DNA of 64,000 nucleotides from Betaproteobacteria bacterium (GCA_031409495.1 JANNXI010000268.1:2075-66074), one strand, 5' to 3'. Counted from the stretch's first letter, positions 36,356 to 64,000 are shown. Made by a program: numbers and translations. The notes: generated by a model not told the origin, from the sequence alone.

Positions 36356-37717
36356 TTAGATGGTTTGGAATGGGTAAACGGAACCCAGCTGCAAGATTTG
36401 GGTTAGGCTATCCAGCGCCGCGCGGGATTCATCGAGCAATTGCGGATCACCCAAATCTGCCTCAGCCATACGATCCCGATAATGCTGCTTTACCCACGTC
36501 GTAAGCGTGGTGTACAGCGCCGGGGTAAGCAACACGCCAGGATTTACGGCGGCAGCTTCGGTTGCGGTTAATTCAACGCGCAGCCGGAGGCAGGCGGGGC
36601 CGCCACCGTTGCGCATGCTTTCACGTAGATCCATCACCAGCACTTTTTTAATCGGTGTCAATGCCGCTTCCGTCAGCCCTTGTAAATAATGCCAAACCCG
36701 CGCGTTATTCTTACATTCACTCGGCACCAGCAACATCATGCTGCCATCGGCTTGGCTTAATAACTGGCTATTAAACAAATAGGAACTTACGGCGTCGGCC
36801 ACACTTACCGCGTTGCTCGGCACCACAACAGCCACAAAACTGGCGCCTTGTTTTTGCTTTAGCTCCGCGATCACAGCCGCTTGATCTAAAAACGCCTGCT
36901 CATGACAAAACAATACATTACCGTTACCAACAGCAATTACGTCGTTGTGAAACACTCCTGCGTCAATCACGTCGGGATGTTGCTGTGCGTAAACCACATG
37001 CGCGTCAGAAAGCCCGTGTAGGCGTGCCACCGCCTGCGAAGCTTCAAGGGATTGCCGCGCGGGAAAGCGCTTCGGCGCAGGTTTAGAAGTATCAAAACCA
37101 TGCGCGCCATAGACAAAAAACTCTACCCCGCGTTGACCATACTCTGCACAAAACCTGGTGTGGTTAGCCGCACCCTCGTCGCCCAAGGCCGGACAGTTTT
37201 GCAGCGCGCCGTGATGCGCAAAATATTGCGCATTGGGAAACATCGCCTGCAACAATCTGCTCGTTTGCGGATGCTCCATCGCCCGATGAAATTTATTGTT
37301 TAAATTTGCCGCAGTAAAATGTACGCGGCCATCAGCCGTATTGGCCGATGGGCTCACCGTGGCGGCGTTGGCCGTCCACATAGATGAAGCACTACACACG
37401 CTATTGAATATTGCAGGTGCATTTTTTACCGCTACGCTAATCACTTGCGCATCGCTACCAACAAAGCCTAATGCCTGCAAAGCCCCTATATTCGGGCGTT
37501 CGTGGGGTGCAAATACGCCTTGCGAAAAGCCCTGATCATGCAGGGCCTTCATTTTATCAAGCCCTTGCAGCGCGGCAAGCTTAGGGTTAGCGACTGCACC
37601 CTGATTATTGCTCGACGCAATATTGCCAAAAGATAAGCCACTGTAATTATGCGTGGGCCCGACTAAACCGTCGAAGTTAAACTCAGTAGTACGTGCTTTA
37701 GGTAATGGCGTTTGCAT
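36356..37717 (-). CDS. astB: N-succinylarginine dihydrolase
   Basis: [24 protein letters not shown] is the AstB N-terminal signature. About 450 aa, in an AST operon context. Confidence 0.92.
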
Positions 37718-37728
37718 GATTTATCTTT

Positions 37729-39213
<1,485 letters not shown>

Positions 39214-39233
39214 TTATATTTAGCCGAGTCCAT

Positions 39234-39275
39234 AGCCAACAGCCATTCGCCAACAACCATTTGCCAACAACCATT
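39234..39275. repeat. 3 x 14-bp tandem repeat in the astA-astD intercistronic spacer
   Basis: AGCCAACAGCCATT / CGCCAACAACCATT / TGCCAACAACCATT, head to tail. Confidence 0.9.
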
Positions 39276-39282
39276 AGCCTAT

Positions 39283-40335
39283 TTAGGCGCGGGCAGACAG
39301 CGCAACAATTCTCGCTTGATCCCCAGCTACCAATCCTAATGCCTTCAAGATGTCCGTATTTAGGGGAATTACAGCCTGCTCTTTTATTTGCTGAGGAGTG
39401 AGCGATGATGCGAAAACACAAGCGCGAAAATCTATTTTTTTAGTGTTGGCAACTATATATCGAGTCGGCGCTGATGCAGATTCTGGCGCATTGTCAAAAG
39501 CAGCTACCGTCACGGCAAAGCTTTGCGCGACCGCGCGGACATCATCCACATTACATTCAACTGTAGGCCCCGCATCAAAAATATCCACATGCCCTTCATA
39601 GCGAAAACCTTCACTTTCCAACATGCTGCGTGCAGGCAGCGTCGCCTCGTGGGTTTTGCCAATAACCGCCTGCGCTTCGGGTGTCAAAAATGAGCTGTAA
39701 AGCGGATGCTTGGGCATCAGCTCCGCCACAAATGATTTTTGCCCGATACCTGTTAAATAGTCGGCTTGGGAGAACTCCATGGAGAAAAAGTGGCGGCCTA
39801 AACTTTCCCAAAACGGCGATGCGCCTTTTTCGTCCGATACGCCACGCAGTTCAGCAATAATTTTCTGTGAAAACAGCGCGCGGAACTGCGCGATAAACAA
39901 GAAACGACACTTTGACAACAGCGCGCCATTTTTCCCCACCCGATATTCAGGGTCTAAAAACAAAGAACAAAGCTCGGAGTGGCCGGTGTGGTCGTTTGAT
40001 AAAAATAACGTGGGCGTTTGCGTAAAAATACCGAGCTCTTTAGACGCGTGCACCACTTGACCCACACGGTAGGAATACCAAGGCTCACGCAAGCCCACGG
40101 CTGCTGCCACAGCACAAGTACCGACAATTTTGTGCTGCGCTAAGTCTTCCAGCACAAACATGTAAATTTGCTCGGCGGGTTCCGCATCACCCGAAAAAGA
40201 CGCCACCGACGCGGCAATGCGTGCTTCCAATAACTTTTCATTATTGGGCAACGTGGTTAAACCGATGCCGGTTTTAGCGGCAAGCTGCATCAGCGCTGCT
40301 AGATCATCTGTTGCAATAGGGCGAATGCACATCAT
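39283..40335 (-). CDS. astA: arginine N-succinyltransferase (beta subunit type)
   Basis: MCIRPIATDDLAALMQLAAKTGIGLTTLP...YSYRVGQVVHAS is typical of AstA/AruG. It pairs with an upstream paralogue as in Pseudomonas aruFG. Confidence 0.88.
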   Translation of the reverse strand: MMCIRPIATDDLAALMQLAAKTGIGLTTLPNNEKLLEARIAASVASFSGDAEPAEQIYMFVLEDLAQHKIVGTCAVAAAVGLREPWYSYRVGQVVHASKELGIFTQTPTLFLSNDHTGHSELCSLFLDPEYRVGKNGALLSKCRFLFIAQFRALFSQKIIAELRGVSDEKGASPFWESLGRHFFSMEFSQADYLTGIGQKSFVAELMPKHPLYSSFLTPEAQAVIGKTHEATLPARSMLESEGFRYEGHVDIFDAGPTVECNVDDVRAVAQSFAVTVAAFDNAPESASAPTRYIVANTKKIDFRACVFASSLTPQQIKEQAVIPLNTDILKALGLVAGDQARIVALSARA

Positions 40336-40359
40336 TTTTTAAGTTTGCCTCTTATTATT

Positions 40360-41481
40360 TTAGCGCGTGGTATTTGCGGGCAAATACACCGGAACTATTC
40401 GCACATCATCGCCATTGACAATTTCTAGCGCTGCCATCATTTCTTCCGACAGCACCACCGTGTCGCCTAAGCCCGCCGCTACGTTAGCCAAGGTGGCGCG
40501 GAAGCGCTCGGTTTCGGTGTTAGCGATGATACAAAGCTGGGCATTTTCAAGCGTCCGCTGGCTTGGCAAAGTACCCAGTGATGGTACGCGCGCGGCCGCT
40601 TTAGCCGCAATGTGCAGGTTCGATGCTGTCGAAGTGTCACCGGCAATCGCACGTTTTTTTATGCTATTAAATACGCTGCGAAGCCCCGAAATACGGGCCT
40701 CTACAGTCGGTCCGCCGTCAAAAATATCAATATAGGTATCGGCTTCAAAGCCTTCATCCATCAAAATGGAAAACGGCAATTCACCCACAGGATGTAATTG
40801 ACCAATAGCTAACTTTGCATCAGCCGGCAGGAGCGGGACATAAATTGGATATTGCGGCATTAGTTCAGCAATAAAGGTTTTGCTGCGCCCGCCAGACAGC
40901 TGCTCGGCTTGCGGATAACCCATGTTAAAAAAGCGTTTGCCGACGGCATTCCAAAACGGTGAATTACCTTCGTCGTCACACACGCCCGGACTTTCAGCCG
41001 CAATGCGCTCAGGAAAGCGATTCGCATGCTCCGCCATAAATAACAGCCGCGCTCTGGACAGCAACTGCGGCAGCGTGCCATCTTGGTGTTCGGGCTTGAT
41101 ATAAAAGGACGACAGCAGCGCCAAACCAGTCAAATCATGACACAAATGCAGCGAGTGAATTTTATTAGACACCCCAAGCTGTTGGGAGGCATGCACAATA
41201 ATTTCGTTGCGGTAGCTATAAAAACGATCATGAAAGCCAGCAGACGCAACAATACCACTCGTACCAATTACTTCGCCCGTAGCGGTATTTTCCAATACAA
41301 AAAAATAGGATTCCTCACCACACACATCCACTTCAGCAGCCAAAGAATGGATTGAATTGGCAATTTTATCCCGCAGCCGGTCATGGTCAGGAGGCAAGGA
41401 GGTAATACCCACCACACTCACCGCAGCAATAGCTTCTACAGCGGACAAATCGGCAAGGCGACAGGGTCTAAGTACAATCAT
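40360..41481 (-). CDS. aruF: arginine/ornithine N-succinyltransferase (alpha subunit type)
   Basis: Start at MIVLRPCRLADLSAV (41481), 10 nt after the astC stop. Paralogue of astA (YSYRNEIIVHAS). Confidence 0.85.
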   Translation of the reverse strand: MIVLRPCRLADLSAVEAIAAVSVVGITSLPPDHDRLRDKIANSIHSLAAEVDVCGEESYFFVLENTATGEVIGTSGIVASAGFHDRFYSYRNEIIVHASQQLGVSNKIHSLHLCHDLTGLALLSSFYIKPEHQDGTLPQLLSRARLLFMAEHANRFPERIAAESPGVCDDEGNSPFWNAVGKRFFNMGYPQAEQLSGGRSKTFIAELMPQYPIYVPLLPADAKLAIGQLHPVGELPFSILMDEGFEADTYIDIFDGGPTVEARISGLRSVFNSIKKRAIAGDTSTASNLHIAAKAAARVPSLGTLPSQRTLENAQLCIIANTETERFRATLANVAAGLGDTVVLSEEMMAALEIVNGDDVRIVPVYLPANTTR

Positions 41482-41491
41482 GGCGTTCTTT

Positions 41492-42859
<1,368 letters not shown>

Positions 42860-42926
42860 TGTCGGCAGCTGCGCCACCAACCAAACACTAATTATTACAC
42901 CGCCAGTGTAATCGTGAACAAAAATT

Positions 42927-42947
42927 ACGCAATTCAGTTTTGCGACA
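42927..42947 (-). promoter_or_regulatory. candidate ArgR half-site upstream of the AST operon
   Basis: The minus strand reads TGTCGCAAAACTGAATTGCGT. As I recall, the Pseudomonas ArgR consensus is TGTCGC-N8-AA-N5. It lies 140-160 nt upstream of astC. Confidence 0.4.
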
Positions 42948-42961
42948 TGCGTTTATACAAA

Positions 42962-44068
42962 TTACGTCAACCCTACTTGTTCCGCAGCGCCTGCAGGTTC
43001 GGCACGCTCAGACACAACCGCAGCACCAACGCCATTGTGCTGAAACTGGTTATCGCGCACGAAGCGTTGGTTGCGTTGTTCGCGCGGCGTTACCTCAAAG
43101 TGGGCGCGATAAGCGCTAGAAAAATGCGGTCCCGACGAAAATCCACAGCTCAAGCCAATTTGCAAAATCGATTGGCTAGTTTGTTGCAGCAATTGCCGTG
43201 AGCGATTGAGCCGCAACTGCAAATAGTAGCGCGACGGCAAACTATCAAGGTATTGCTTAAACAGCCGCTCAAGTTGCCGCCGCGATACGCCGACGAGGCG
43301 AGCAATCTCTTCAGTGGGTAGCGGCTCTTCAAAATTCGCCTCCATCAGCGCCACAGCTTCGGTTAGCTTTGGTTGCCCACCGCCGATGCGCGCAGAAATC
43401 GGCACCCGTTGATTTTCGCTACCTGCGCGGGCACGCTCAATGCCGAAGTGTTCGATCACTTCGGCAACCAAATCAGCATCGTGGCTTCTTCGCAGAATCT
43501 CTAGCAACATGTCGAGCACTGCTGCGCCATTTGGGCAGCTCGCACTAGCCCCATCTAATTCAAACAAATTACTAGACACAATCACCGTCGGAAAATCTTC
43601 TGCAAACAGGGTTGCATAAGTCCAATCAATGGTCGCACGAAGGCCGCCCAGCAGCCCTGCCCGCGCCAGTAAGTATGCCCCAGTGCCAATACCACCCAGT
43701 GTGGGGACACCCGTATTCTGATCGCGCAAAATACGGTGATTGATACCGCGTAGCCACGCAATCACATTTTCAAATCCGCGCTGTGGCAGCGGGCTAGCGC
43801 TCAATACCAGCAGGGAACCCAATGCCCCCACATTGGCCATCGCTGTATGTACAGAAATTACCAACCCGCAACTAGACGTAACAGGGGCACCAGTCTCAGA
43901 AATTAACACTACTTCATAGCTGTCAACGGCTAATAGTTGGTTGACGACGGCATAAAGTTCAGTACAACTCGCCATTGATGCCAATGAAAATTTCGGCAGC
44001 AAAAATATGCCCAGGCGCTGCACTGCAGGCGTAAGCGCTGTTGACTGCGAGTGCACCGCGATTGCCAT
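42962..44068 (-). CDS. argR: AraC/GlxA-family transcriptional regulator, ArgR-like by synteny
   Basis: C-terminal AraC HTH (IARLVGVSRRQLERLFKQYL...SILQIGLSCGFSSGPHFSSAYRAHF). N-terminal DJ-1/PfpI-like domain. Last gene of an aotJQMOP-type operon, as in P. aeruginosa. Confidence 0.75.
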   Translation of the reverse strand: MAIAVHSQSTALTPAVQRLGIFLLPKFSLASMASCTELYAVVNQLLAVDSYEVVLISETGAPVTSSCGLVISVHTAMANVGALGSLLVLSASPLPQRGFENVIAWLRGINHRILRDQNTGVPTLGGIGTGAYLLARAGLLGGLRATIDWTYATLFAEDFPTVIVSSNLFELDGASASCPNGAAVLDMLLEILRRSHDADLVAEVIEHFGIERARAGSENQRVPISARIGGGQPKLTEAVALMEANFEEPLPTEEIARLVGVSRRQLERLFKQYLDSLPSRYYLQLRLNRSRQLLQQTSQSILQIGLSCGFSSGPHFSSAYRAHFEVTPREQRNQRFVRDNQFQHNGVGAAVVSERAEPAGAAEQVGLT

Positions 44069-44071
44069 AGG

Positions 44072-44845
44072 CTACTTCAAATTACCGGACAAAAACTGTT
44101 GCAGACGCTCACTTTGCGGCCGCGCCAGCACTTCGCGCGGGTTACCCTGCTCTTCGATGAGGCCTTTATGGAGAAATACCACGTGGTTTGATACCTCGCG
44201 CGCGAAACCCATTTCATGTGTCACCACAATCATCGTGCGGCCTTCCGCGGCCAAATCGCGCATGACTTTCAGCACTTCACCAACTAACTCTGGATCAAGC
44301 GCTGAAGTTGGCTCGTCGAAAAGCATCACTTCTGGTTCCATCGCTAGCGCACGTGCAATGGCGACCCGTTGCGCCTCACCACCCGATAAATGCGCCGGAT
44401 AGGTATCCGCGCGGTGGGACACCCCAACCCGCTCCAGTAACGCTTGAGCGCGCTCAATTGCCTGCGCCTTGCTCACGCCCAGCACATGAATCGGGGCTTC
44501 GATAATATTTTCAAGCGCGGTCATGTGCGCCCATAAGTTAAAATGCTGAAACACCATCGCAAGCTTGGTGCGCATGCGCTGCAGCTGCCCCACATCCGCG
44601 GCCTTTAATGCGCCAGCTTTGTCAGAAACAAGCTTTAACTCCTCACCACACACCGTAATTTTGCCCTCGTAAGGCGCTTCGAGCATATTGATGCAGCGGA
44701 GCATGGTGCTTTTACCGGAGCCGCTTGAACCAATCACACTAATGACGCTGCCCGCATTAGCGGAAAGCGAAACGCCACGCAGCACTTCATTACTGCCGTA
44801 GCGCTTTTTTAGATTTTCAACGAGCAGTTTTTGCATAATTTTCAA
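44072..44845 (-). CDS. aotP: basic amino-acid ABC transporter ATP-binding protein
   Basis: Walker A GSSGSGKST, signature LSGGEAQRVAIARAL, Walker B MLFDEPTSALD. Confidence 0.9.
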   Translation of the reverse strand: MKIMQKLLVENLKKRYGSNEVLRGVSLSANAGSVISVIGSSGSGKSTMLRCINMLEAPYEGKITVCGEELKLVSDKAGALKAADVGQLQRMRTKLAMVFQHFNLWAHMTALENIIEAPIHVLGVSKAQAIERAQALLERVGVSHRADTYPAHLSGGEAQRVAIARALAMEPEVMLFDEPTSALDPELVGEVLKVMRDLAAEGRTMIVVTHEMGFAREVSNHVVFLHKGLIEEQGNPREVLARPQSERLQQFLSGNLK

Positions 44846-44867
44846 TCACTTTTTATCATCAAAACCA

Positions 44868-44900
44868 CCTGAAGACGCCCTATAATAGGGCGCCTTCAGG
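44868..44900. repeat. REP-like palindrome (family copy 5)
   Basis: CCTGAAGACGCCCT-ataat-AGGGCGCCTTCAGG (one mismatch), inside the operon between aotO and aotP. Confidence 0.8.
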
Positions 44901-44909
44901 GTATCAAAA

Positions 44910-46034
44910 TTAAGCACTCAACAAGTTTCCAGTTTTAAATGCTGTCGCACTCGCTACCTTTGCCAAACGCATGCCCACGGTTGCAAAGTAACGATTCTCG
45001 CGCGCGTACAACACGCCGGAAGTTTTGCAATAAAACTGTTTTACAGCACCGCTGATTGGGTCAATTACCTCAGCAATTAAATCGCCCGCCGTTACGACAT
45101 CACCCGGCTTACGCATAAACGCCACCACGCCAGCCACATCAGCTTCAAGCGCTTCCGAACCCGCAAGTGGGGTAGCGCCATGCACTAACGCTGGCAGCAC
45201 CGGTACGGCATCTGTGGCCACTGCAACAATGCCACGGTGAATCAAAAAGTCAATTATCGCGCTCGCATCTTTAGCCGCCTGATCATGCCCCACATCCGTT
45301 TGCCCACGTAATTCAACCGTTACCGCTAAACACGCCATCGCAATAGGTGCGGCAGGAAAAGCCCCCGCCAATTGCCACCATGTTTGCGAACAGGCTTCAT
45401 CAAACGGATTATCGCCACTTTCGGTCGCCAACAAAGTAGCGTGGGCACCCATGGCACGCGCCAATGGCTCACATTGCGGCCACAAAGGTGTGCCCGTATA
45501 AAGATGCAGTACAGCGTCAGAATCACAGTGCAAATCTAGTACCGCATCGGCATCACAAGCTAGGCTCATTAATACATGGCGCATGCTCGCGAGCTCACTT
45601 GCGGGCTGATTCGCCGCTAAGTGCGCGCGCATGGCGGCGCGGATAATTTTGGTGTTTTCAGCTTCACTACTGGTTAAATTAGCGGCCAATTGGTCTTTAA
45701 TAGCTAAAAATAAAGCCGGATAATGCCGATTAAAATTTTCACCCGTGGCGGCATCAAACCGCCCCAATTGGCTGCGTAACACCGTTTGCGCCAAGCCAAT
45801 CGGGTTTGCCACTGGCACCACCACAACTTCACCGCGCAACTGTTGATTGACCTCTAAATGTGCCAGCGTTTGCCGCAAATGATGGGCGACGAGCATACCG
45901 GGAAGCTCATCGGCATGCAGAGACGCCTGAATATAAATTTTTTCACCAGCACCAGGCGTGCCATAGTGAAAGCTAACAATTTCTCGCTGCGTACCAATAT
46001 AACTGCTGCTCAGCGAATGATGTTTTTTAATCAT
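44910..46034 (-). CDS. aotO: succinylglutamate desuccinylase/aspartoacylase-family protein
   Basis: IQASLHADELPG and ...DLHCD... zinc-carboxypeptidase-like motifs. It sits between the permease and ATPase genes, as aotO does. Confidence 0.7.
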   Translation of the reverse strand: MIKKHHSLSSSYIGTQREIVSFHYGTPGAGEKIYIQASLHADELPGMLVAHHLRQTLAHLEVNQQLRGEVVVVPVANPIGLAQTVLRSQLGRFDAATGENFNRHYPALFLAIKDQLAANLTSSEAENTKIIRAAMRAHLAANQPASELASMRHVLMSLACDADAVLDLHCDSDAVLHLYTGTPLWPQCEPLARAMGAHATLLATESGDNPFDEACSQTWWQLAGAFPAAPIAMACLAVTVELRGQTDVGHDQAAKDASAIIDFLIHRGIVAVATDAVPVLPALVHGATPLAGSEALEADVAGVVAFMRKPGDVVTAGDLIAEVIDPISGAVKQFYCKTSGVLYARENRYFATVGMRLAKVASATAFKTGNLLSA

Positions 46035-46070
46035 AAATTTTGGAAATAGTTACAAGGGAAAGCATAAAAT

Positions 46071-46763
46071 TTAGTGGGCTTTGCGCACTAAATGCTTCAA
46101 AAAATGCTTTTCAGCCAAACGCGCGAGACCAACCAAGGCAAATGTCATCGCCAAATAAAACAACGCACCAATAATAAAAGCCTCATACGGCAAGTAGTGT
46201 CGCGCATTCACTTCACGCGCCACGCCCGTCAAATCCATAATCGTGACGGTGCTCGCAAGGGAGGTGCCATGCAACATCATGATGACTTCATTGCTATACG
46301 CAGGCAATGCACGACGAAACGCAGCGGGCAGCAAAATACGTACAAACATTTTGACCCGCGTCATGCCCATACTTAATGCTGCTTCCACCTCACCAATGGG
46401 CGTTGCCTTGATGGCACCAGCGAGCATTTCTGTGGTGTAGGCGCAAGTATTAATCGCAAAAGCTAATACCGCACAAAACCAAGCAGATGACAAATAAGGC
46501 CACGCGAAACTCTCACGAATCAACTCAAATTGTCCGGCGCCGTAGTAAATCAAAAATAACTGCACCAGCATCGGCGTGCCGCGAATGAGATAAGTAAAAA
46601 ACCAGATAGGTTTGCTAAACCACGGGTTGTCCGCCGCGCGCAATACCGCCAGCGGCACCGCCGCCGTTAAGCCAATAAGCAAGGCCATAAATAATAGCTG
46701 CAGCGTGACCCACGCGGCGCTCCAGTACTGCGGTAAGCTGTCCCAGATTACTTCAAAGTTCAT
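46071..46763 (-). CDS. aotM: basic amino-acid ABC transporter permease
   Basis: HisM-type permease, about 230 aa, 5 TM, with an EAA-like loop (EVEAALSMGMTRVKMFVRILLP). Confidence 0.88.
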   Translation of the reverse strand: MNFEVIWDSLPQYWSAAWVTLQLLFMALLIGLTAAVPLAVLRAADNPWFSKPIWFFTYLIRGTPMLVQLFLIYYGAGQFELIRESFAWPYLSSAWFCAVLAFAINTCAYTTEMLAGAIKATPIGEVEAALSMGMTRVKMFVRILLPAAFRRALPAYSNEVIMMLHGTSLASTVTIMDLTGVAREVNARHYLPYEAFIIGALFYLAMTFALVGLARLAEKHFLKHLVRKAH

Positions 46764-47449
46764 AATACTGCCGCCCGAACACCCCTATTTACGCGCTTTT
46801 CCAGCCAATTCAAAACTAGAATTGATACGGTCGTAAACACCAAATACAGCACCGCAGCCGCCACATAAAATGTAAATGGCTCGCGCGTGGCACCCGCTGC
46901 TTGCCCCGCCTTTTGCATCATGTCAGTCAAACCAATAACTGATACGAGGGCCGTAGACTTGATCAACACCAACCAGTTATTACTAAAACCCGGCAAGGCG
47001 TAGCGCACCATTTGCGGCAGCGTAATGCGAAAGAATATTTTGCCATTTGACATGCCATAGGCCATGCCCGCCTCCCGTTGCCCCGGAGGAATTGCCATAA
47101 GTGCACCGCGAAAAGTTTCTGTTAGGTACGCACCGAATATAAAACCTATCGTGAGCACACCTGCAACAAACGGATTGATATCGATAAAATCGCCATAGCC
47201 GAGCTTAGGTGCAAGGTGATTTACTGCTGTTTGACCGCCATAAAAAATCAACAGCATCAAAATTAAATCAGGTACGCCACGAATTACGGTGGTGTAAACC
47301 GTCGCAATGCCACGTGCCGTACGAGATTTCGATAGCTTCATCGCCGCACCTTGCAGGCCCAGTATCACCGCAATAATCAGCGAGCAAAAAGCCACGCTTA
47401 ACGTAATCAGCGAGCCTTCCAAAATACTGGGCAAGTAACCGTGGAGCAT
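46760..47449 (-). CDS. aotQ: basic amino-acid ABC transporter permease
   Basis: HisQ-type permease (QREAGMAYGMSNGKIFFRITLPQM). 4-nt overlap with aotM. Confidence 0.88.
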   Translation of the reverse strand: MLHGYLPSILEGSLITLSVAFCSLIIAVILGLQGAAMKLSKSRTARGIATVYTTVIRGVPDLILMLLIFYGGQTAVNHLAPKLGYGDFIDINPFVAGVLTIGFIFGAYLTETFRGALMAIPPGQREAGMAYGMSNGKIFFRITLPQMVRYALPGFSNNWLVLIKSTALVSVIGLTDMMQKAGQAAGATREPFTFYVAAAVLYLVFTTVSILVLNWLEKRVNRGVRAAVL

Positions 47450-48321
47450 TATTTTTTAACGGCTGGAGTGGCCGGCGCTGCGGGTGTCGCTGGAGCCGCC
47501 ACTTTCGGCGGCATCACCTTAGCTTCGGTAATGGCATCGCCATACACATCAAAATCAAAGTACTTATTTTGCAGTTTGGTATACTCGCCGTTTGCGCGAA
47601 TCACTTTAATGGCGGCATTGAATTTATCCCGAAGCACCGCATCGTTTTTACGCATCGCCACGCCAGCGCCTAAGCCAAAATACTTTTCATCTTTTAACAA
47701 CGGGCCAAAAAAACTGAAGGCTTTGCCCTGCGCCGTTTTCAAAAAGCCATTTTCAGCGACGATAGCGTCTACGAGTAACGCATCAACCCGACCTGCCACC
47801 AAATCTAAAAACGCCTCATCTTGTTTGGCGTAGCGCTTAATTTCTGAGTCTTTATAGAGCTCAGTCACATAGCGATCTTGGGTAGTAGTGCGTTGAACAC
47901 CAATTTTCTTGCCTTTCATTCCTGCTGGCGTGGTTTCAAGCTTCATACCCGACTTCGCCACAAATCGTGCTGGGGTTTGATAGTACTTATCTGAAAATGC
48001 CACTTGCTTCTTACGCTCATCAGTTATGCTCATGCTCGCGATAATAGCGTCAAACTTACGAGCGTTAAGTGCTGGAATCATGCCGTCCCAGTCTTGCTGC
48101 GTCAATGTACATTCCGCTTTCATTTCCGCACACAAGGCGTTAGCCATGTCGATATCAAAACCCTTCAGCTTGCCATCGGTACCGAGTTGGCTAAAAGGCG
48201 GAAAAGCGCCTTCAACACCAATACGGATTTTTTTCCAATCTGGTGCCTGTGCAATTGCGCTTGAAGTGGCAATCAAAAACACAGCAGTCAAGAATGTTGT
48301 GGTGCAGCGGGAAGATTTCAT
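47449..48321 (-). CDS. aotJ: periplasmic arginine/ornithine(lysine)-binding protein with a Pro/Ala-rich C-terminal tail
   Basis: Signal peptide plus KIRIGVEGAFPPFS...GFDIDMANALC...WDGMIPAL...FDAIIASMSIT (ArgT/AotJ type). The extra tail is PPKVAAPATPAAPATPAVKK. Confidence 0.88.
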   Translation of the reverse strand: MKSSRCTTTFLTAVFLIATSSAIAQAPDWKKIRIGVEGAFPPFSQLGTDGKLKGFDIDMANALCAEMKAECTLTQQDWDGMIPALNARKFDAIIASMSITDERKKQVAFSDKYYQTPARFVAKSGMKLETTPAGMKGKKIGVQRTTTQDRYVTELYKDSEIKRYAKQDEAFLDLVAGRVDALLVDAIVAENGFLKTAQGKAFSFFGPLLKDEKYFGLGAGVAMRKNDAVLRDKFNAAIKVIRANGEYTKLQNKYFDFDVYGDAITEAKVMPPKVAAPATPAAPATPAVKK

Positions 48322-48346
48322 GAGTTCAGGCCTTTAAGAATGTATG

Positions 48347-49651
48347 TTAGTTTTTAGCAGGTGGGGTTATTCTGCTTTGCAAAGCGGATTCGACGATCGG
48401 TACGTAAAGCGGTAGTTTAATTTGTACCGGAACGATGTCCAGATAAATATTTGCCACCGTGTAACGTTCGCTGCCACTTGCAGCGGTGAAGTATCCCAGA
48501 CTATTTGCACCTTTGCTAAATATAAACTCAAACCCTATGTCTGGGCGCTTTTCAGCAGCACCCTTGGGATTGAACGCCAAGCCGATGATACGTTTGTGTT
48601 TGTTATCGATTAAGTTACTCATTACTGTGTAGATAGTGTTGTCCCCCAAGATGGCTGGATAGAACGTTTCGTCACTAAAATAGGGCTTAAAACCTGCCGC
48701 GGTGTGATCGATTTTGGTACCGCTCAACTTTGCCGTGGAGGGTGTGAGCACGCCGGTGCTAAAGTTGAATTTGTCGCCGCTATCGAGATAGGTAATTTTG
48801 GCATTTTTAATATTATACTCAGCAATTTTTTTATCTGCGCTTGCATCGCGAAGATCCGCGAAAATAGCGCCTTTAGCACCAATTACCTCTATGGTGTTGC
48901 CTTGAATAATAGCGGCTGAATCTTCTTCAACACCGAGGCCTAACTTGGTGTTTGCAGTTTGCATCGCGGGCAGTAAGCGACCCAATCTACCACGCTTTAA
49001 AAAATGCTGATCCACAAACATTTCAGCGCCTGCAAATCCCAACCCCACATCTAACTCACGCTCATTACCGAGACTGCCCATCCGCGCCCCGAACTTCAAC
49101 ACGTCCAGCACATCGGGTGCGTCGCGAAACATGGTTTTACTCATGATTGCAGCGCCTGCACTTGTTCCTGCAACCACACCGCCTTTATCAAATAGATTCC
49201 AAATAGCTTCGAGCACCGGCGAACGACTGCCGTCGGCATTAACCAACGCTTGGGTAATCCGCTCTTGCGATCCACCAGAAAAAAATACGCCCTGACTTTC
49301 ATTTACTTTTCGCACTAGCGTTGGGCTACGTGCAGCCGTTTTATAACCTACCTGGGAAGCGGATTCTTTCAACATCGGCGCAACCCGAATGTGTTCAGCT
49401 ACCGCGCCGTGTTTGCTCAAAGACGCAATAATTGATTGCGCTGATTTCTCCGGATTGTCGGCAGCTGTAGCGAATACCGCAAATTTACTACCCTTGCCGC
49501 CTGCCAACGCCACAATCCGTGCCCACACTTCGTCGTTGTCCGCCTTCAGCGCACCACCGATTGGTACTGCAATACCAGCGCCGCCTGCCATCGGCGTTAG
49601 CGAAAGCCAAACCAATGTGCAGCAGAGTTGTAAAATATTTTTTAAGGACAT
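48347..49651 (-). CDS. exported peptidase S51 (cyanophycinase-like) with a C-terminal extension
   Basis: Start at MSLKNILQLCCTLVWLSLTPMAGGAG (signal). VFFSGGSQERITQAL and VVAGTSAGAAIMS match the cyanophycinase GGDQ / GxSAG Ser-nucleophile motifs. Only 25 nt separate its stop from the aotJ start. Confidence 0.75.
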   Translation of the reverse strand: MSLKNILQLCCTLVWLSLTPMAGGAGIAVPIGGALKADNDEVWARIVALAGGKGSKFAVFATAADNPEKSAQSIIASLSKHGAVAEHIRVAPMLKESASQVGYKTAARSPTLVRKVNESQGVFFSGGSQERITQALVNADGSRSPVLEAIWNLFDKGGVVAGTSAGAAIMSKTMFRDAPDVLDVLKFGARMGSLGNERELDVGLGFAGAEMFVDQHFLKRGRLGRLLPAMQTANTKLGLGVEEDSAAIIQGNTIEVIGAKGAIFADLRDASADKKIAEYNIKNAKITYLDSGDKFNFSTGVLTPSTAKLSGTKIDHTAAGFKPYFSDETFYPAILGDNTIYTVMSNLIDNKHKRIIGLAFNPKGAAEKRPDIGFEFIFSKGANSLGYFTAASGSERYTVANIYLDIVPVQIKLPLYVPIVESALQSRITPPAKN

Positions 49652-49882
49652 ATTGTCAAAAATCCGAATGATAGTAACGGCACGGCGCGGCAAAAAATTA
49701 GGGTTACGGCAGTTTGTCACAGCTCATGGCTGTGCGGTGTATCGGCACAATGAATGTGTAATTTGGCGTCGCATTCAGACAAACTAAGATCAGCAATAGC
49801 GACGCTTAAAGAGTACGCAGGCCGCACACCCCAAAATGACGCGCTAAGCATCAACTTGGTGCATTTTCAACGCAAAAACCCC

Positions 49883-58607: not shown

Positions 58608-59609
58608 ATGGAAACTTCGATGCAAACAATTACACAAACGGCACCCGGCGGTGTTGAAACAATGCTGCTCATCACGAATGCACCGATACCTGACCCAAAA
58701 CCTGATGAAGTATTAATCAAGGTTGCCTACGCCGGCGTAAACCGACCTGATGTCGCGCAACGCGCAGGCATGTACGCGCCCCCGCCTAACGCCTCACCCA
58801 TAATGGGCCTAGAAGTGTCCGGCCATGTGCTGGCGGTGGGCGCCAACGTTACTGAATGGTGCGTGGGTGATGCGGTGTGCGCCCTCACCCCGGGCGGCGG
58901 CTATGCGCAGTATTGCGTGGCGCTGGCAGCGCACTGTCTGCCGATTCCCGAGGGCTTAAGTTTGCTGGAGGCGGCAGCATTGCCTGAAAACTTTTTCACA
59001 GTATGGGTAAATGTATTCGACACCTGCAAACTAAAAGCTGGCGAGAGTTTGCTGGTGCATGGCGGTTCATCAGGCATTGGTTTAACGGCAATTCAGCTAG
59101 CCCGCGCTTTTGGCGCAACGGTTTACACCACAGTAGGCAATGACGCGAAAGCTGCGTTTTGCAAGGATCTTGGCGCAATTACCTTTAATTACAACACCCA
59201 AGATTGGGCGGCAGAATTAGCTACGCATACCGAAAAGCGAGGCGTTAATGTGATCCTCGATATGGTTGGCGGGTCATATATTGAAAAAAACCTACGCAAT
59301 TTAGCACTTGAAGGCCGCTACTGTTTCATCGCCTTTCTACAAGGCGGCAGCGCCCAAATTGATTTCCGCCCCCTAATGATGAAACGCCAAACCATCACCG
59401 GATCAACCTTGCGCGCACGGCCTGATGCGCACACGGCAGCGATTGCTGACGCGTTAAAATTGCAGGTGTGGCCGCTAATTGAAGCAGGTAAAATAAAGCC
59501 GACGATACACGCGACTTTTCCACTTGCTGATGTCGCGAAGGCACATGCGCTGATGGAGTCATCGGCTCATATTGGCAAGATTATGTTGCTTGTGGGCGGG
59601 GAAATATAA
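58608..59609 (+). CDS. qor: NAD(P)H:quinone oxidoreductase (PIG3/Qor type), intact
   Basis: EVLIKVAYAGVNRPDVAQRAGMYAPPP...MGLEVSGHV and the Rossmann motif VHGGSSGIGLTAIQLA. The last ~385 nt are duplicated at 63587-63969. Confidence 0.88.
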   Translation: METSMQTITQTAPGGVETMLLITNAPIPDPKPDEVLIKVAYAGVNRPDVAQRAGMYAPPPNASPIMGLEVSGHVLAVGANVTEWCVGDAVCALTPGGGYAQYCVALAAHCLPIPEGLSLLEAAALPENFFTVWVNVFDTCKLKAGESLLVHGGSSGIGLTAIQLARAFGATVYTTVGNDAKAAFCKDLGAITFNYNTQDWAAELATHTEKRGVNVILDMVGGSYIEKNLRNLALEGRYCFIAFLQGGSAQIDFRPLMMKRQTITGSTLRARPDAHTAAIADALKLQVWPLIEAGKIKPTIHATFPLADVAKAHALMESSAHIGKIMLLVGGEI

Positions 59610-59666
59610 AAAGTCCACTGAATTGGATATGCTATCTCGTTGCTATCCACAGAGTGTCTTCAGCTT

Positions 59667-60242
59667 TTAGACAAACTGCCTAGCCACTCCTGTGATTGCT
59701 AACCTGTATTTGAGCATTTTCAAACTAACGCCGTAGGTACTCGCGGCTGTTACATCATCTATCTTTAGCTTACGGATAGAAATGAGTGCTTCTCTCGGTA
59801 ATAAAATGCACGCGGAAAGCCAATCAGCCTGGCTCTCTTCTAGAATGTCATAACTCTCTATTAACATTAATCCCTCAGCAGACGTCAAGACCTGACGCGC
59901 ACTGTGCTTAAGTATTTGATGCGCGAGCTCATGCGCTAAGTCACTTGATTGACGAGCAACGCTGTGGGACGAATTTAGAACTATGAGCTTTTTATCACCC
60001 ACGACCAAGGTCACCGCGGACCAACAACTGGGTGTTTTTCCATCATTCCTCAGCAAAACTTCTAGGCACTCTTGCGACAAGTTTGGAATTTCATTGACGA
60101 GTAAAACCTTTATTTTCAAATGACGAGCAAGGCCTCTCAGATCAATTGACTTTTCTTTCGACGTTCCGAGTTCGGCGCGAATCTCACAAGCGTACTTTTC
60201 GCACCACGTCTTAAACCCATGATGGAAAGCACTAGTCGTCAA
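59667..60242 (-). CDS. ImmA/IrrE-family zinc metallopeptidase
   Basis: HEXXH motif in DLAHELAHQILKH. About 190 aa. It overlaps the stop of the upstream XRE gene by 11 nt (the classic XRE-ImmA pair). Confidence 0.8.
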   Translation of the reverse strand: MTTSAFHHGFKTWCEKYACEIRAELGTSKEKSIDLRGLARHLKIKVLLVNEIPNLSQECLEVLLRNDGKTPSCWSAVTLVVGDKKLIVLNSSHSVARQSSDLAHELAHQILKHSARQVLTSAEGLMLIESYDILEESQADWLSACILLPREALISIRKLKIDDVTAASTYGVSLKMLKYRLAITGVARQFV

Positions 60243-60594
60243 ACTGCTCGTCCATCATAAGCTTACTAGCAGAAACGATCATTGCAGCCAAAGCTGTCGC
60301 TGTGTCTTGACTTATCGTAGCGCTCTTTTTGAAGTGAACCTTGACCTTGAGGGATTCGCCAACGGATTGCGAACTTAATCCAAGGAGCAGCGCAGGGTCT
60401 TCACCGAGCCACTTACAAACTTTGCTGAAGGTTTCCAAATCTGGGATCTTGCCATTCTCAATTCGCGAAAGAGTTGCTGAACTAACTCCCACCTCAGTGG
60501 CAGCTTCCCTGATGCCTTTGCCCTCTCTTCGCATCAGAATTTTCTGGGCTAAAAGATCCATTTGGATTGAACTCATCGAACGTGTATCTTTCAT
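60232..60594 (-). CDS. XRE-family helix-turn-helix transcriptional regulator
   Basis: HTH IREAATEVGVSSATLSRIENGKIPDLETF. The start is uncertain: 60594 (MKDTRS) or 60576 (MSSIQ). The track start at 60735 is unlikely because it would run through the divergent promoter. Confidence 0.8.
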   Translation of the reverse strand: MKDTRSMSSIQMDLLAQKILMRREGKGIREAATEVGVSSATLSRIENGKIPDLETFSKVCKWLGEDPALLLGLSSQSVGESLKVKVHFKKSATISQDTATALAAMIVSASKLMMDEQFDD

Positions 60595-60608
60595 AATACA
60601 AAAAAGTG

Positions 60609-60637
60609 TTTGACATGTAAGACGATTTATTGTACAT
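60609..60637 (+). promoter_or_regulatory. near-consensus sigma-70 promoter for the Ubl operon
   Basis: TTGACA (60609-60614), a 17-nt spacer, then TACATT (60632-60637), about 80 nt upstream of ATG 60714. Confidence 0.55.
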
Positions 60638-60650
60638 TTCGTTTCACTGA

Positions 60651-60667
60651 TGAGACAGAGTGTCTCA
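60651..60667. promoter_or_regulatory. 17-bp perfect palindrome, candidate XRE operator
   Basis: TGAGACA-gag-TGTCTCA lies 14 nt downstream of the -10 hexamer, between the divergent XRE and Ubl genes. Confidence 0.5.
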
Positions 60668-60713
60668 CAGCGACGTAGTGGCGTCAATGCCACCTGCCAA
60701 AAAAGGACTAGAA

Positions 60714-60992
60714 ATGACTGCTGATTTCGAAACAAGTAAACAAGAGCATCGTAATGAAATTATCGTAATCGTTAATGGACGGCAAAAAGTAGTTTCCAAA
60801 GACACTTTCTTCTATTCAGAGATAGTGATACTCGCGTTTGAAAATGCTACTTTCAATGATACGACAGTATTTACCGTAACATTTTCTCGCGGGCATGACG
60901 CGGATAAACAAGCGGGCGTATTAGTGGCTGGCGATACGGTTAAGGTTAAGAAAGGAATGATATTTAATGTCACGTCAACTGATAAATCTTAG
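60714..60992 (+). CDS. multiubiquitin-type beta-grasp (ubiquitin-like) protein, single domain
   Basis: Start at ATG 60714 (AAGGA-containing RBS). IIVIVNGRQKVVSKDTFFYSEIVILAF...VKVKKGMIFNVTSTDKS matches the prokaryotic 'multiubiquitin' domain as I remember it (IxVNG...; C-terminal FNVTxTDKS). Confidence 0.65.
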   Translation: MTADFETSKQEHRNEIIVIVNGRQKVVSKDTFFYSEIVILAFENATFNDTTVFTVTFSRGHDADKQAGVLVAGDTVKVKKGMIFNVTSTDKS

Positions 60993-62145
60993 TCCAGATC
61001 TCAAAAGGCTATCGGACGAAGGCTACGACATAGAGATAAAAGCCGGATTTCTCTTTGTACATTCTGTCCCTTATTTGAACGCTAACCAAGAGCTTTGCAG
61101 TGGCACTTTGGTGTCAACTTTATCGCTCGCTGGCGACATTACAACAGTGCCCAGCGATCATGTAGTACATTTTATTGGCGAATATCCGCATCAAAAAGGA
61201 GGGGGCGAAATCACGCAGATAAAGCACGCGAATGAAACTAAATCTATCAGCGAAGGTACTGTAATTAACTTTTCTTTCTCCAACAAGCCGGCTGGAGGTT
61301 ACGCAAATTACCATGCAAAGATGACACGTTACATTGACATAATTACGGCCGAGGCAGAGTCAGCCTTTCCGCTGAGCCGAGTAACGGCCAAAAGTTTCAA
61401 ACCCATTGAAGGCAAGGCGGAGCACTCAGTTTTTCAATATCTTGACTCATCCTCAAGCCGCGGAGGCTTTCAGGCGAGCTCTCAAAAGCTGGTGGGGCTA
61501 AAGGTCGGAATAATCGGGTTAGGCGGAACCGGATCTTACATATTGGACTTAATTGCAAAAACGCCGATTGCTGAAATACATCTCTTCGATGATGACCATT
61601 TTCTACAACACAATGCGTTTCGATCACCTGGCGCGGCATCACTTTACGATCTCAAGGCTCAATTGATCAAGGTCGATTATTATCAAAAGGCGTATTCAAA
61701 ACTTCATAAAAATATCTTTGCACATCCCCTTAAGGTCACCGAGTCAAACGCCGCGGAAATGGCTCCCCTTGACTTCGTTTTCATTTGCGTCGATAGCGCA
61801 AGTTCAAGACAATTTTTAGTCCGCAAACTGGAAGAAATGCAGATATCGTTCATCGACGTAGGCATGGGAATAGTATCGGTGAACGATATGTTAATTGGGC
61901 AGGTGCGCACTACTATCAGCACAGCAAGCACGAGGGATAGCGCAATAAAATCGATTCCGCTCAGCGACACTGAGAACGATAATGAGTATGCCACGAACAT
62001 TCAGATTTGCGAACTAAATGCATTAAATGCGTGCATGGCAGTAATGAAATGGAAAAAGCAATACGGCTTTTATCAAGATCTCGAGAACGAGATTTGCAGC
62101 ATTTACGAGTTGAATACCAATTTGATTGTAAATTTGAACCAATGA
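60967..62145 (+). CDS. E2-like N-terminal domain fused to a ThiF/E1-type adenylyltransferase
   Basis: E1 core: VGIIGLGGTGSYILDLIAK (GxGxxG), FDDDHFLQHNAFRSP (D-x-D...N-x-x-R), DFVFICVDSASSR, FIDVGMG. The N-terminal ~150 aa carry HSVPYLNANQELCSG (HPN-like motif plus a Cys about 12 residues later). It overlaps the Ubl gene by 26 nt. Confidence 0.75.
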   Translation: MSRQLINLSPDLKRLSDEGYDIEIKAGFLFVHSVPYLNANQELCSGTLVSTLSLAGDITTVPSDHVVHFIGEYPHQKGGGEITQIKHANETKSISEGTVINFSFSNKPAGGYANYHAKMTRYIDIITAEAESAFPLSRVTAKSFKPIEGKAEHSVFQYLDSSSSRGGFQASSQKLVGLKVGIIGLGGTGSYILDLIAKTPIAEIHLFDDDHFLQHNAFRSPGAASLYDLKAQLIKVDYYQKAYSKLHKNIFAHPLKVTESNAAEMAPLDFVFICVDSASSRQFLVRKLEEMQISFIDVGMGIVSVNDMLIGQVRTTISTASTRDSAIKSIPLSDTENDNEYATNIQICELNALNACMAVMKWKKQYGFYQDLENEICSIYELNTNLIVNLNQ

Positions 62146-62606
62146 GAAAGCCAAAAAATTTACAGCACAGATTTGTGGAATTTATACCGAGCGATTTAGA
62201 CAAGGGTGTTGTATACATCTCAATCGAGTATGCAACCGCGACGCATTTATGCTGCTGCGGTTGCGGCTCCGAGGTGGTAACCCCTTTGTCGCCGACAGAC
62301 TGGGAAATAACCTTCGACGGCGCCTCTATATCTATCTCACCTTCTATTGGCAACTGGAACTTTGCCTGCAAATCACACTATTGGATTATTCGAAATTTCG
62401 TGCATTGGGCAGAGCCGTGGGAGATCCACAAGATCAAAGCAAATCGCGAGAAGGATGAGGCTAACAAAAACGCTTACTTTTTAATCAATAGCACTCAAAA
62501 AAATGGTGCTTCGCCAGACAAGCTTACGCCCAAAGCCACCCGCGCAACATGTAACTCAAAAAACACTTTTCTCGCTCGAATACGAAAATTACTCATGCTA
62601 AATTAA
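62142..62606 (+). CDS. DUF6527-like Cys-cluster protein
   Basis: Start at ATG 62142 (ATGA overlap with the E1 stop). FVEFIPSDL...YISIEYATATHLCCCGCGSEVVTPLSPTDWEI...SPSIGNWNFACKSHYWI. CxxC...CxxH spacing suggests a Zn knuckle/treble clef. The family name is from memory. Confidence 0.6.
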   Translation: MRKPKNLQHRFVEFIPSDLDKGVVYISIEYATATHLCCCGCGSEVVTPLSPTDWEITFDGASISISPSIGNWNFACKSHYWIIRNFVHWAEPWEIHKIKANREKDEANKNAYFLINSTQKNGASPDKLTPKATRATCNSKNTFLARIRKLLMLN

Positions 62607-62683
62607 GCTTATCCCCAATTTCAAATAACCGATTTGCCAATTATTTTCGGCAAGACACTTACACAACTCCTCAATATTCCAAC

Positions 62684-63583
62684 ATGAAAAAAACAACTCT
62701 TCAAATCGAAACTGGCATTGATAGCCTCGCTAAAATCACTACAAACATCGTCAAACTAGGCACCCTTATTGGTGCGTTCTTTGTAACTATGTATTGCTTA
62801 AGGATAGATCACTTTCCTCAAGATCTTTCTTTAGGCGATGGCTTGTTGCTGCTGCTGGCGGGCGGGGCGTTTGGAGCAGTGTATGTATTTTTTCTTGTCT
62901 GCCATATCGCTTTGGGGACCGCCCTTTTCCCAGTTACAAAATTCATATGTAAAGCAATTGTCGCATTGCCATTTTTACGCTTCGCGCAAAAAGAACATCT
63001 CCACCGATTCACGCCGTTTTCTTGGCAGTCGCTTCCATTTTCTTTTGTAGCAGTCCTATTGATTTATCTCATGGGAAGAAATGACCCAATCTTGTATTGG
63101 CTGTTGCCTTTGTGGGCTGTTGCGCTCCACATTTTTTATTCAGTATTTTCGTCCTGCGGAGACAAAATACGCATTCTCGAGGGCGCGCAAAACTCTATTG
63201 TGCACAACATCGTAAGAGCGCCTATCGACTGCAACCAAGACATTGAAACGCTTAAAAACACACGAATCGCTACCCTTGCAGCGATTGTGATCGCGCCACT
63301 AGTTGCGAGCGGCATCTACGGACAGATTCTTGACTCAGCCATGCGGCTTGCCAACGTCCGGTTAGAGTCGCCCACCATCTATCTGAAAGACCCTTACTTA
63401 GCGCTGCTCCCAAAAAATTTGATCACCAAGACCCAACGAATTTCAAAGGATTATGTGGCTTTTGAGGGTGCGAAGGTGTTCTTCAAGGGATTCGGAAAAA
63501 CGACAATTATCAGCTTTGCTGACGGAATGGTTCGGCGGCAGCTTGAAATCCCCAACGACCAGATCATCGTCGAGAATCGATAG
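62684..63583 (+). CDS. 5-TM membrane protein with a ~85-aa soluble C-terminus (candidate effector)
   Basis: Hydrophobic helices (LGTLIGAFFVTMYCL, LLLLLAGGAFGAVYVFFLVCHIALG, FSFVAVLLIYLMG, LYWLLPLWAVALHIFYSVF, IATLAAIVIAPLVASGIY). Last gene of the islet. No recognisable family. Confidence 0.6.
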   Translation: MKKTTLQIETGIDSLAKITTNIVKLGTLIGAFFVTMYCLRIDHFPQDLSLGDGLLLLLAGGAFGAVYVFFLVCHIALGTALFPVTKFICKAIVALPFLRFAQKEHLHRFTPFSWQSLPFSFVAVLLIYLMGRNDPILYWLLPLWAVALHIFYSVFSSCGDKIRILEGAQNSIVHNIVRAPIDCNQDIETLKNTRIATLAAIVIAPLVASGIYGQILDSAMRLANVRLESPTIYLKDPYLALLPKNLITKTQRISKDYVAFEGAKVFFKGFGKTTIISFADGMVRRQLEIPNDQIIVENR

Positions 63584-63586
63584 CCA

Positions 63587-63969
63587 CCCACACCGAAAAG
63601 CGCGCGTTAACGTCATCCTAGATATGGTCGGCGGTTCATACATTGAAAAAAGACCTACGCAATTTAGCGCTAGAAGGCCGCTATTGCTTCATCGCTTTTT
63701 TGCAAGGCGGCAGCGCCCAAATTGATTTCCGCCCCCTAATGATGAAACGCCAAACCATCACCGGATCAACCTTGCGCGCACGGCCTGATGCGCACAAGGC
63801 AGCGATTGCTGACGCGTTAAAATTGCAGGTGTGGCCGCTAATTGAAGCAGGTAAAATAAAGCCGACGATACACGCGACTTTTCCACTCGCTGAGGTCGCG
63901 AAGGCACATGCATTGATGGAATCATCGGCTCATATTGGCAAGATTATGTTGCTTGTGGGCGGCGAGTAG
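63587..63969 (+). pseudogene. displaced 3' fragment of qor (right direct repeat)
   Basis: It aligns to 59224-59609 at a constant offset of 4363. The 5' ~70 nt carry many substitutions plus a 1-nt deletion and a 1-nt insertion that create an in-frame stop. The remainder encodes the Qor C-terminus (...HALMESSAHIGKIMLLVGGE*). Track ORFs 63453-63725 and 63643-63969 are fragments of it. Confidence 0.85.
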
Positions 63970-63982: not shown

Positions 63983-64000
63983 CCTGAAGATGCCCTATTT
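63983..64000. repeat. REP-like palindrome (family copy 6), left arm only; cut by the window edge
   Basis: CCTGAAGATGCCCTATTT, 14 nt after the stop of the qor remnant. Confidence 0.7.

Follow-up and report, generated by a model that had tools for sequence, protein, structure and literature searches.

A 64,000-nucleotide stretch of betaproteobacterial DNA (GCA_031409495.1, JANNXI010000268.1:2075-66074; hereafter the window) carries at the 3' end of qor, a quinone oxidoreductase gene, a small islet predicted to encode a Type II Bub ubiquitination-like operon. The islet lies between two direct copies of the qor 3' end (Table 1), and a near-identical islet joined to qor at the same nucleotides was found in a second, diverged host, indicating recent movement between the two lineages. 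Many defence systems reside in islets without recognisable mobility genes and the route by which such islets move is often unclear. The present locus is a clean natural case in which 4.0 kb of cargo appears to have been exchanged between bacteria ~20% apart, at the same nucleotide positions and with no recombinase in cis, and in which the long repeats on either side show signs of homologous exchange. As a comparison between species the case is unusually clean, though the two carriers are contigs of metagenome-assembled genomes (MAGs) and the mechanism proposed below is our reading of their sequences.

Table 1. Features of the islet and its surroundings, in window coordinates.
Feature	Position	Strand	Description
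qor, NAD(P)H:quinone oxidoreductase	58608..59609	+	Intact 333-aa open reading frame (ORF) ending GGEI-stop; Pfam ADH_N, ADH_zinc_N, ADH_zinc_N_2; homologues named NAD(P)H-quinone oxidoreductase by their sources
Left direct repeat	59218..59609	+	3' 0.39 kb of the intact qor
77-bp core	59340..59416 (right counterpart 63703-63779)	+	Identical in the left and right copies of the window, the left copy of L081 and the empty-site lineage L082-87
Islet proper	59604..63580		3,977 bp; guanine-plus-cytosine (GC) content ~0.44; 99.17% identical to L081 8638-12614
capP-like ImmA/IrrE metalloprotease	59667..60242	-	191 aa, HExxH; Pfam Peptidase_M78 E=4.6e-16; PADLOC capP E=4.7e-9
capH-like XRE helix-turn-helix repressor	60232..60561	-	109 aa as called in L081, maximal ORF to 60735; Pfam HTH_3, HTH_31
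bubA, ubiquitin-like protein	60714..60992	+	92 aa as called in L081; Pfam Multi_ubiq (PF14452) E=4.3e-13
bubBD, E2-E1 fusion	60967..62145	+	392 aa; Pfam DUF6791 E=1.2e-51 (residues 10-161) and ThiF (residues 171-301); PADLOC E1-E2 matches weak
bubE, DUF6527 serine-protease family	62142..62606	+	154 aa; Pfam DUF6527 (PF20137) E=1.3e-23; ATG overlaps the bubBD stop (ATGA)
Membrane protein, no known family	62684..63583	+	299 aa, multi-pass, full length; TAG stop exactly at the islet/right-repeat junction
Right direct repeat, displaced qor 3' fragment	63581..63969	+	Codons ~204-332; two frameshifts; 5' third a foreign qor allele; native GGE-stop
Host palindrome resembling a repetitive extragenic palindrome (REP), first half	63983..64000	+	Cut by the window end; follows qor in relatives

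Two carriers of one islet

The host of the window is a betaproteobacterium whose best relatives, in a scan of one genome per species, were uncultured Burkholderiales and Betaproteobacteria MAGs. We took 174 qor loci from public genomes and metagenomes, and a single one of these, on the NCBI MAG contig JAYUOW010000318.1 (L081), has a duplication like that of the window. This contig, which was found via a BubBD differing by one amino acid, carries the same islet, joined to qor at identical nucleotides on both sides. When metagenomes were scanned a second time with qor, the relatives were all of at most 77% identity and none had the duplication. Exact look-ups of the window qor, from either of two start codons, gave no match. 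An earlier note on this DNA, made from the window alone, had suggested looking for the same cassette at qor in other strains and for an empty qor site in relatives; the first was found in L081 and the second in three related lineages.

Over the islet the window and L081 differ at 33 of 3977 positions, whereas the host flanks, taken as the SNF2 gene upstream together with the unique portion of qor, show 880 differences in 4227 positions (79.2% identity). Vertical inheritance cannot give 99% in the one and 79% in the other, and we therefore read the islet as having moved between these lineages recently. Its GC content (~0.40 to 0.47, as against ~0.50 to 0.58 in the flanking genes), the empty sites and the excess identity to L081 all agree with the foreign origin that the earlier note had assigned to the cargo. 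Divergence is distributed unevenly within the islet, with 4/63 differences in the spacer, 10/576 in capP, 9/504 in capH, 3/333 in bubA, 1/1179 in bubBD, 1/465 in bubE and 7/900 in the membrane-protein gene, or 1.8% for capP and capH together, 0.1% for bubBD and bubE, and 0.8% for the membrane-protein gene. This gradation suggests recombination among several circulating islet variants.

All of these sequences are metagenome assemblies from related stream samples and the lineages share a 77-bp identical segment of qor, circumstances in which the islet of one population might have been joined chimerically to two host backgrounds via the shared qor repeat. We consider such an assembly artefact highly improbable. 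The two islet copies differ at the 33 sites given above, and host-specific differences extend to within 4 bp of the left junction while islet-specific differences begin 9 bp inside it, leaving only 12 identical bases. Identical runs between the two repeat copies of a genome (94 and 90 bp) are below typical final k-mers, and L182, assembled independently from another run, matches L081 exactly over bubE, the membrane-protein gene and the right junction.

Empty sites and the native right end

In three related lineages (L001, L082-87 and L088-94) one qor is followed by the DNA that in the window follows the right copy. L001, with a qor protein 88% identical and three syntenic upstream genes, has a single qor, no cargo and an ABC transporter directly downstream. 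In the closer lineages L082-L087 and L088-L094 the single qor is followed by a strong palindromic hairpin, and the qor of all empty-site relatives ends GGE-stop. The window qor is syntenic with those of L001, L081 and L082; gene calls in relatives begin at its second methionine, at 58620. The right copy and the next 31 bp align colinearly with the end of the L082 qor and its hairpin (89.8% over 421 bp), and the palindrome family is native to the host, which together indicate that the right copy sits on native host DNA. The proposal that the native qor 3' end had been displaced rightward is thereby upheld, the right copy also having the GGE stop context and being followed by the host palindrome. 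The REP terminator that the earlier note placed there is indeed present, but only its first half falls within the window.

In L081 and L082 the palindrome after qor forms a perfect 16-bp-stem hairpin (-34.4 kcal/mol, z = -8.7). REP-like palindromes of this family (CCTGAAGAcGCCCTA-n4-TAGGGCGTCTTCAGG) sit after several genes, at 13016-13053 of L081 and, besides the copy after qor, at 10225-10266, 33177-33214 and 44868-44900 of the window. A diverged REP at the left end of the islet (59604-59672) was considered and rejected, as its homology to the native palindrome was not significant (shuffle p ~0.09).

The DNA downstream of qor varies among lineages: L001 has nothing there, L081 and L082 have a 346-aa gene, and L088 has small ORFs of other kinds. 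The 346-aa ORF, which belongs to no family, follows the right copy of L081 on the minus strand (13088-14128); the same DNA (93% identity) lies at 1364-2404 on the minus strand of L082, is split in L082-87 into ORFs of 113 and 223 aa, and is absent from L001. Six of the seven L088-L094 contigs end 320 to 350 bp past qor and the seventh (L094) 45 bp past it, and the downstream DNA of this lineage, with a 38-aa ORF, is unlike that of L081 and L082. The region after qor and its REP appears to be a strain-variable hotspot that breaks assemblies. A duplication of a different kind was seen in a Casimicrobiaceae MAG (L059 10950-11180), where the last ~42 bp of qor and the downstream hairpin region are repeated in tandem with a period of ~120 bp and no cargo between.

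Repeat anatomy and mosaic arms

Repeat search and pairwise alignment gave a start-to-start spacing of 4363 bp between the two copies (4362 bp between two indels), confirming the constant 4363-bp offset claimed in the earlier note; the duplication starts at 59218, however, and not at 59224 as given there. The initial match (59284-59583 / 63647-63946) had 95% identity and was accompanied by two shorter flanking matches at offsets of 4363 or 4362 bp. Aligned in full, the copies differ at 26 of 386 positions; chance comes nowhere near accounting for a repeat of this length at 93% identity. Identity is mosaic, as had been noticed: 19 of ~122 positions differ in the 5' part (59218-59339), none of 77 in the core, and seven of 186 in the 3' part (59417-59602). 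A 185-bp block (59340-59524 vs 63703-63887) shows the single mismatch reported for it (59434 C / 63797 A). Within its 5' part the right copy has lost one base at 63603/4 and gained one at 63652, between which the frame is broken for 48 nt. The difference in stop context also held on alignment, the left copy ending GGEI-stop (GAAATATAA) and the right copy GGE-stop (GAGTAG).

Between the two carriers, identity collapses at both islet edges. The right-copy 5' parts of the window and L081 differ at 14 of 122 positions and their left-copy 3' parts at 24 of 186, so that the repeat arms are 11 to 13% diverged as against 0.8% for the islet and 7/900 for the adjacent membrane-protein gene. On this comparison the repeats are not part of the travelling unit and the arms were not co-inherited with the cargo. 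The 5' part of the window right copy is nearest to the lineage L088 (8/122) and far from the left copy of its own genome (19/122), which bears out the earlier view of it as diverged, marks it as foreign, and is consistent with a crossover within the 185-bp block or close to it. Over 59417-59510 both copies of the window resemble L088 (5 to 6 differences in 94), and the pattern is reversed in L081, whose own copies have similar 5' parts (6/122) and dissimilar 3' parts (19/186). The arms are mosaics of qor alleles from other lineages. The suggestion that the element supplied a replacement 3' end stands in part: the left copy keeps qor intact, and ATATAA plus the islet are identical in both hosts, but an element origin is not demonstrable for most of the left 3' part.

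The age of the arrangement can be weighed against the same data. It could be an old resident locus, in which qor was already duplicated and an ancestral islet already present before the carrier lineages separated, the empty sites are secondary deletions between the repeats, and only the cargo was recently homogenised between species by homologous exchange limited to the very similar islet DNA. Identity does step down exactly at the islet edges, the graded islet divergence indicates recombination among variants, and private substitutions are many in the right copies (~19 in L081, ~9 in the window); moreover, deletion occurs readily between 0.39-kb repeats, and the qor ends left behind would be hybrids such as the core shared by L082. 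However, a right copy evolving neutrally since the host split (17 to 21% overall divergence) would be expected to have diverged well beyond 14% and to have lost its open frame, which L081 retains. The match of the window right-copy 5' part to the L088 allele implies import rather than descent, and the low GC of the islet together with its absence from all three sister lineages argues for acquisition. An old resident locus is in our view an unlikely account.

The 77-bp core stands out from the rest of the repeat. It has four differences in the L081 right copy, which are clustered, two in L088-94 and 13 in L001, those of L088 and L001 being all synonymous. The qor genes of the window, L081 and L082 are 13 to 18% diverged, yet share this invariant run, the next longest being 23 bp (codon-column shuffle p<5e-5). 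In 156 distant qor genes the core is no more conserved than neighbouring segments, and it contains no palindrome, no core-type inverted repeats and no notable RNA fold (z 0.2 to 0.3), the last ruling out an RNA element. A 38-nt core pattern had no exact match in JGI metagenome contigs or IMG/VR. Because the core is invariant in diverged lineages, not conserved in distant qor, and without fold or palindrome, it is DNA that these lineages have come to share recently. Reciprocal exchange of element-borne with resident copies, repeated many times and hitting the middle of the arm most often, could have left it as a footprint; alternatively, it could be an att identity segment. A core shared among attL, attR and an empty attB is equally expected from repeated homologous exchange.

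Cargo genes

Type II Bub operons are defined by BubA, BubBD and BubE, with CapH and CapP as a regulator pair (PMC11601596). Six genes lie between the two qor copies of the window: the CapP/CapH pair, bubA, bubBD, bubE and a gene for a 299-aa membrane protein. They include a Multi_ubiq ubiquitin-like protein, an E2-E1 fusion and a DUF6527 gene directly downstream of it, with no JAB/JAMM peptidase (no JAB domain in any islet ORF by Pfam), as well as adjacent helix-turn-helix and M78 genes divergent from the Bub operon. From these domain assignments the cargo is predicted to be a Type II Bub ubiquitination-like operon under CapH/CapP together with an independent membrane-protein gene, with a putative anti-phage defence function. 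Overlapping and divergent promoter-like hexamers are present at 60593-60638, in the capH-bubA region.

BubA ends in ...NVTSTDKS, without a terminal glycine, and may require proteolytic processing ahead of conjugation. The architecture of bubBD is common to thousands of homologues, and the bubBD/bubE start-stop arrangement recurs in L095 and L097. BubE, which is absent from the gene calls in the public L081 annotation, holds the pattern CCCGC...S-x8-C-x2-H as read by eye. Residues expected of such operons are an E2 Ser with Lys/His, an E1 crossover-loop Tyr and, in BubE, a Ser-His dyad with a C4 zinc finger. The closest BubBD beyond the two carriers, in a search of 5.8 billion proteins, is 58% identical. 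Related Bub operons (55 to 56% identity) are located in other defence islands, beside BREX or PLD/DEAD genes and not at qor, and are therefore uninformative on the insertion mechanism here. We take the operon to be a new, diverged member of a described operon family, in an uncultured freshwater betaproteobacterium.

The membrane protein has no Pfam or PADLOC match. We found ~30 homologues of 282 to 333 aa (most 298 to 303), covering 94 to 100%, and one 208-aa fragment; elsewhere the gene stands alone in variable regions and not beside Bub operons. As it is full length and occurs alone elsewhere, a Bub component or a truncated gene was ruled out. The Pseudomonas leptonychotis homologue (L178 10001-10912) lies between genes for an SLFN-g3-type helicase and a YobI-ATPase, a context resembling a defence island.

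Absence of mobility genes and nature of the junctions

In agreement with the earlier note, no recombinase was detected among the six cargo genes with Pfam and PADLOC. There is likewise none among the genes called on L081, and a Pfam survey of all ORFs of at least 150 aa at window positions 1-58584 gave neither an integrase nor a transposase. Viral contigs contained no relative of the qor C-terminal 130 aa nor of BubBD. The islet has neither terminal inverted repeats nor a transposase, ruling out a transposon or insertion sequence. No dif-like XerC/D site was found in the repeats, where the best match to the E. coli dif consensus has 13/28 mismatches and is no better than background, and an integrative mobile element exploiting Xer (IMEX) was excluded on this ground. 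Target-site duplication was also rejected, as the copies within a genome differ by 7% while the cargo differs by 0.8% between hosts. Models with a fixed crossover, whether in the core, at the far 5' edge or at the far 3' edge, each need a pair of repeat segments ~99% identical between carriers, and no pair is.

At the right junction GAGAAT[CGA]TAGCC stands against the native CAGAAT-TAGCT, a case of AGAAT/TAGC microhomology with a 3-bp filler, located at the TAG of a complete gene; at the left junction the native TAG is replaced by ATATAA. Since the right junction falls on the stop codon of a gene of full length, it resembles a microhomology or illegitimate join more than a dedicated attP placed in non-coding DNA. 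That the carriers share both junctions unchanged indicates that the founding event took place once.

The main rival to the mechanism proposed below is a site-specific element mobilised in trans, similar to a cis-mobilizable element (CIME) or a satellite. The repeats would then be true attL and attR, the integrase would be encoded on a helper integrative and conjugative element, phage or island, strand exchange would take place in the 77-bp core (185 bp in this genome), and the islet would be a cargo-only rider. Such elements classically leave direct repeats at the 3' end of a gene and supply that gene with a replacement end, and CIMEs by definition keep attL and attR and have lost their integration genes (PMC5704250). 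In addition, three of the four repeat copies and one empty-site lineage have the same core sequence, and the place of insertion is the same in two diverged hosts. However, a fixed crossover needs the right-copy 5' part and the left-copy 3' part to travel with the cargo, whereas these are 11 to 13% diverged against 0.8%. The would-be attP would be wholly qor-like coding sequence abutting a gene stop with no non-coding arm region, and it lacks both inverted-repeat core-type sites and a dif-like site. Neither an integrase remnant nor a decayed gene is present in the islet, the surveyed ORFs of the window include no integrase, and no viral contig has the core or a qor fragment. A CIME produced by decay was rejected separately: the six genes are intact, there are no pseudogene remnants, and the two spacers outside the capH-bubA promoter region are only 57 and 77 bp. 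Of the earlier label attL/attR, the direct repeats stand, but site-specific recombination is disfavoured by the divergence of the arms; mobilisation in trans is a possibility that we rate as rather unlikely, albeit ahead of an old resident locus.

A possible homology-arm mechanism

The likeliest of the mechanisms considered, though we regard it as an even call, is that the islet moves without a recombinase of its own, the duplicated qor end providing homology arms for recombination by the host. In the founding event, the end of the membrane-protein gene would have been joined to qor codon ~204 and the last qor codons to the left end of the islet, either through a Campbell-type single crossover of a circle with a qor 3' segment or through homology-facilitated illegitimate recombination. 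Thereafter the 0.39-kb qor repeats would serve as homology arms for the host recombination machinery: crossover between the repeats would delete or circularise the 4,363-bp unit, and in a cell that had taken the unit up by transformation, transduction or a similar route, crossover with the resident qor would insert it. The arms would be reshuffled by gene conversion between the copies and by exchange with incoming alleles, with crossovers at varying positions and conversion tracts stopping where homology stops. Such a process would give host-like mosaic arms, a 77-bp identity that includes an empty-site lineage, and a break in identity exactly at the end of homology. The sequences show the anatomy, the foreign origin, the empty sites, the sharing between species, the lack of a recombinase in cis and the mosaic arms; RecA dependence, a circular intermediate and the route of cell-to-cell transfer are inferred.

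Several points weigh against a homology-arm mechanism. The site patterns are not all accounted for by any single-step model. In particular, a Campbell product in its simple form predicts one repeat-equivalent of element-borne sequence ~99% identical between carriers, which is not seen, and therefore several conversion or exchange events have to be postulated at later times. The 77-bp cross-lineage identity would also be expected of an att identity segment, and homologous recombination is inefficient between arms 85 to 90% identical. Furthermore, the carriers in public data are two genomes only, both metagenome-assembled contigs, and the window ends 31 bp beyond the right copy.

If host recombination does act on these arms, it would explain the spread of small cargo-only islets among related species and would predict frozen cores at empty sites. 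More tentatively, and with doubt outweighing confidence, the islet may represent a class of recombinase-free mobile defence cassettes, each taking along a copy of its target's 3' end to serve as a portable homology arm. Such cassettes would hop between species by RecA-mediated Campbell events, with the arm rewritten in each host, the centre of the target homogenised, and the 77-bp core at empty sites remaining as the footprint.

Other features of the window

Outside the qor region, a cluster of large multihaem cytochrome c proteins with Cytochrome_C7/c3/c554 domains, one of them with LVIVD repeats, occupies 15728-26637, just behind a LytTR/His_kinase two-component pair, and may be a module for extracellular electron transfer. 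At 36356-49720 lies an operon for the arginine succinyltransferase (AST) pathway (two AstA genes, AstB, AstD-like, AstE and an aminotransferase) together with an ABC amino-acid transporter. A paralogous Zn-dehydrogenase at 35279-36286 is unrelated to the qor duplication.

Comparison with known systems

Homology-facilitated illegitimate recombination during natural transformation, reportedly described by de Vries and Wackernagel in 2002 (as cited in PMC10770853), resembles the present case in having one end anchored in homology (qor) and the other joined at a microhomology of a few bases, but it would explain the founding event only and not the later spread. Defence hotspots and minimal mobile elements exchange their content between conserved flanking genes. 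The variable content downstream of qor and the location of related Bub operons in defence islands are in keeping with this pattern; typical hotspots, however, leave the flanking gene unduplicated, whereas here the 3' end of the flanking gene, qor, is duplicated.

With regard to cargo, the islet has the same gene set and order as the Type II Bub operons (6E.2/DUF6527) and likewise no JAB peptidase, as well as a divergent pair of helix-turn-helix and M78-protease genes, which is present in 31% of 544 catalogued operons (PMC11601596). It differs from them in the added stand-alone membrane-protein gene and in its diverged BubBD, and is known here from sequence alone. As in CIMEs (PMC5704250), integrase-less DNA lies between direct repeats at the 3' end of a target gene that is kept intact; unlike CIMEs, the islet has no decayed mobility genes, its repeats are 0.39 kb of mosaic host-like coding DNA rather than short conserved att sites, and the element-side arms are not co-inherited. 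Cassettes between two direct copies of a host gene are known to form circles and to re-insert by homologous recombination, as in the pcp-mediated cfr(C) circles of Campylobacter coli (PMC10770853). These share with the islet a cargo of ~3.7 to 4.4 kb between direct copies of a housekeeping-type gene, the lack of a recombinase, and a target consisting of DNA with the homologous gene, but in the present case one copy is a 3' fragment made at the insertion site, the cargo is a putative defence system and the circle is only inferred. The mobility architecture is a variant of these known integrase-less islets, namely CIMEs (PMC5704250) and circles bracketed by gene copies (PMC10770853).

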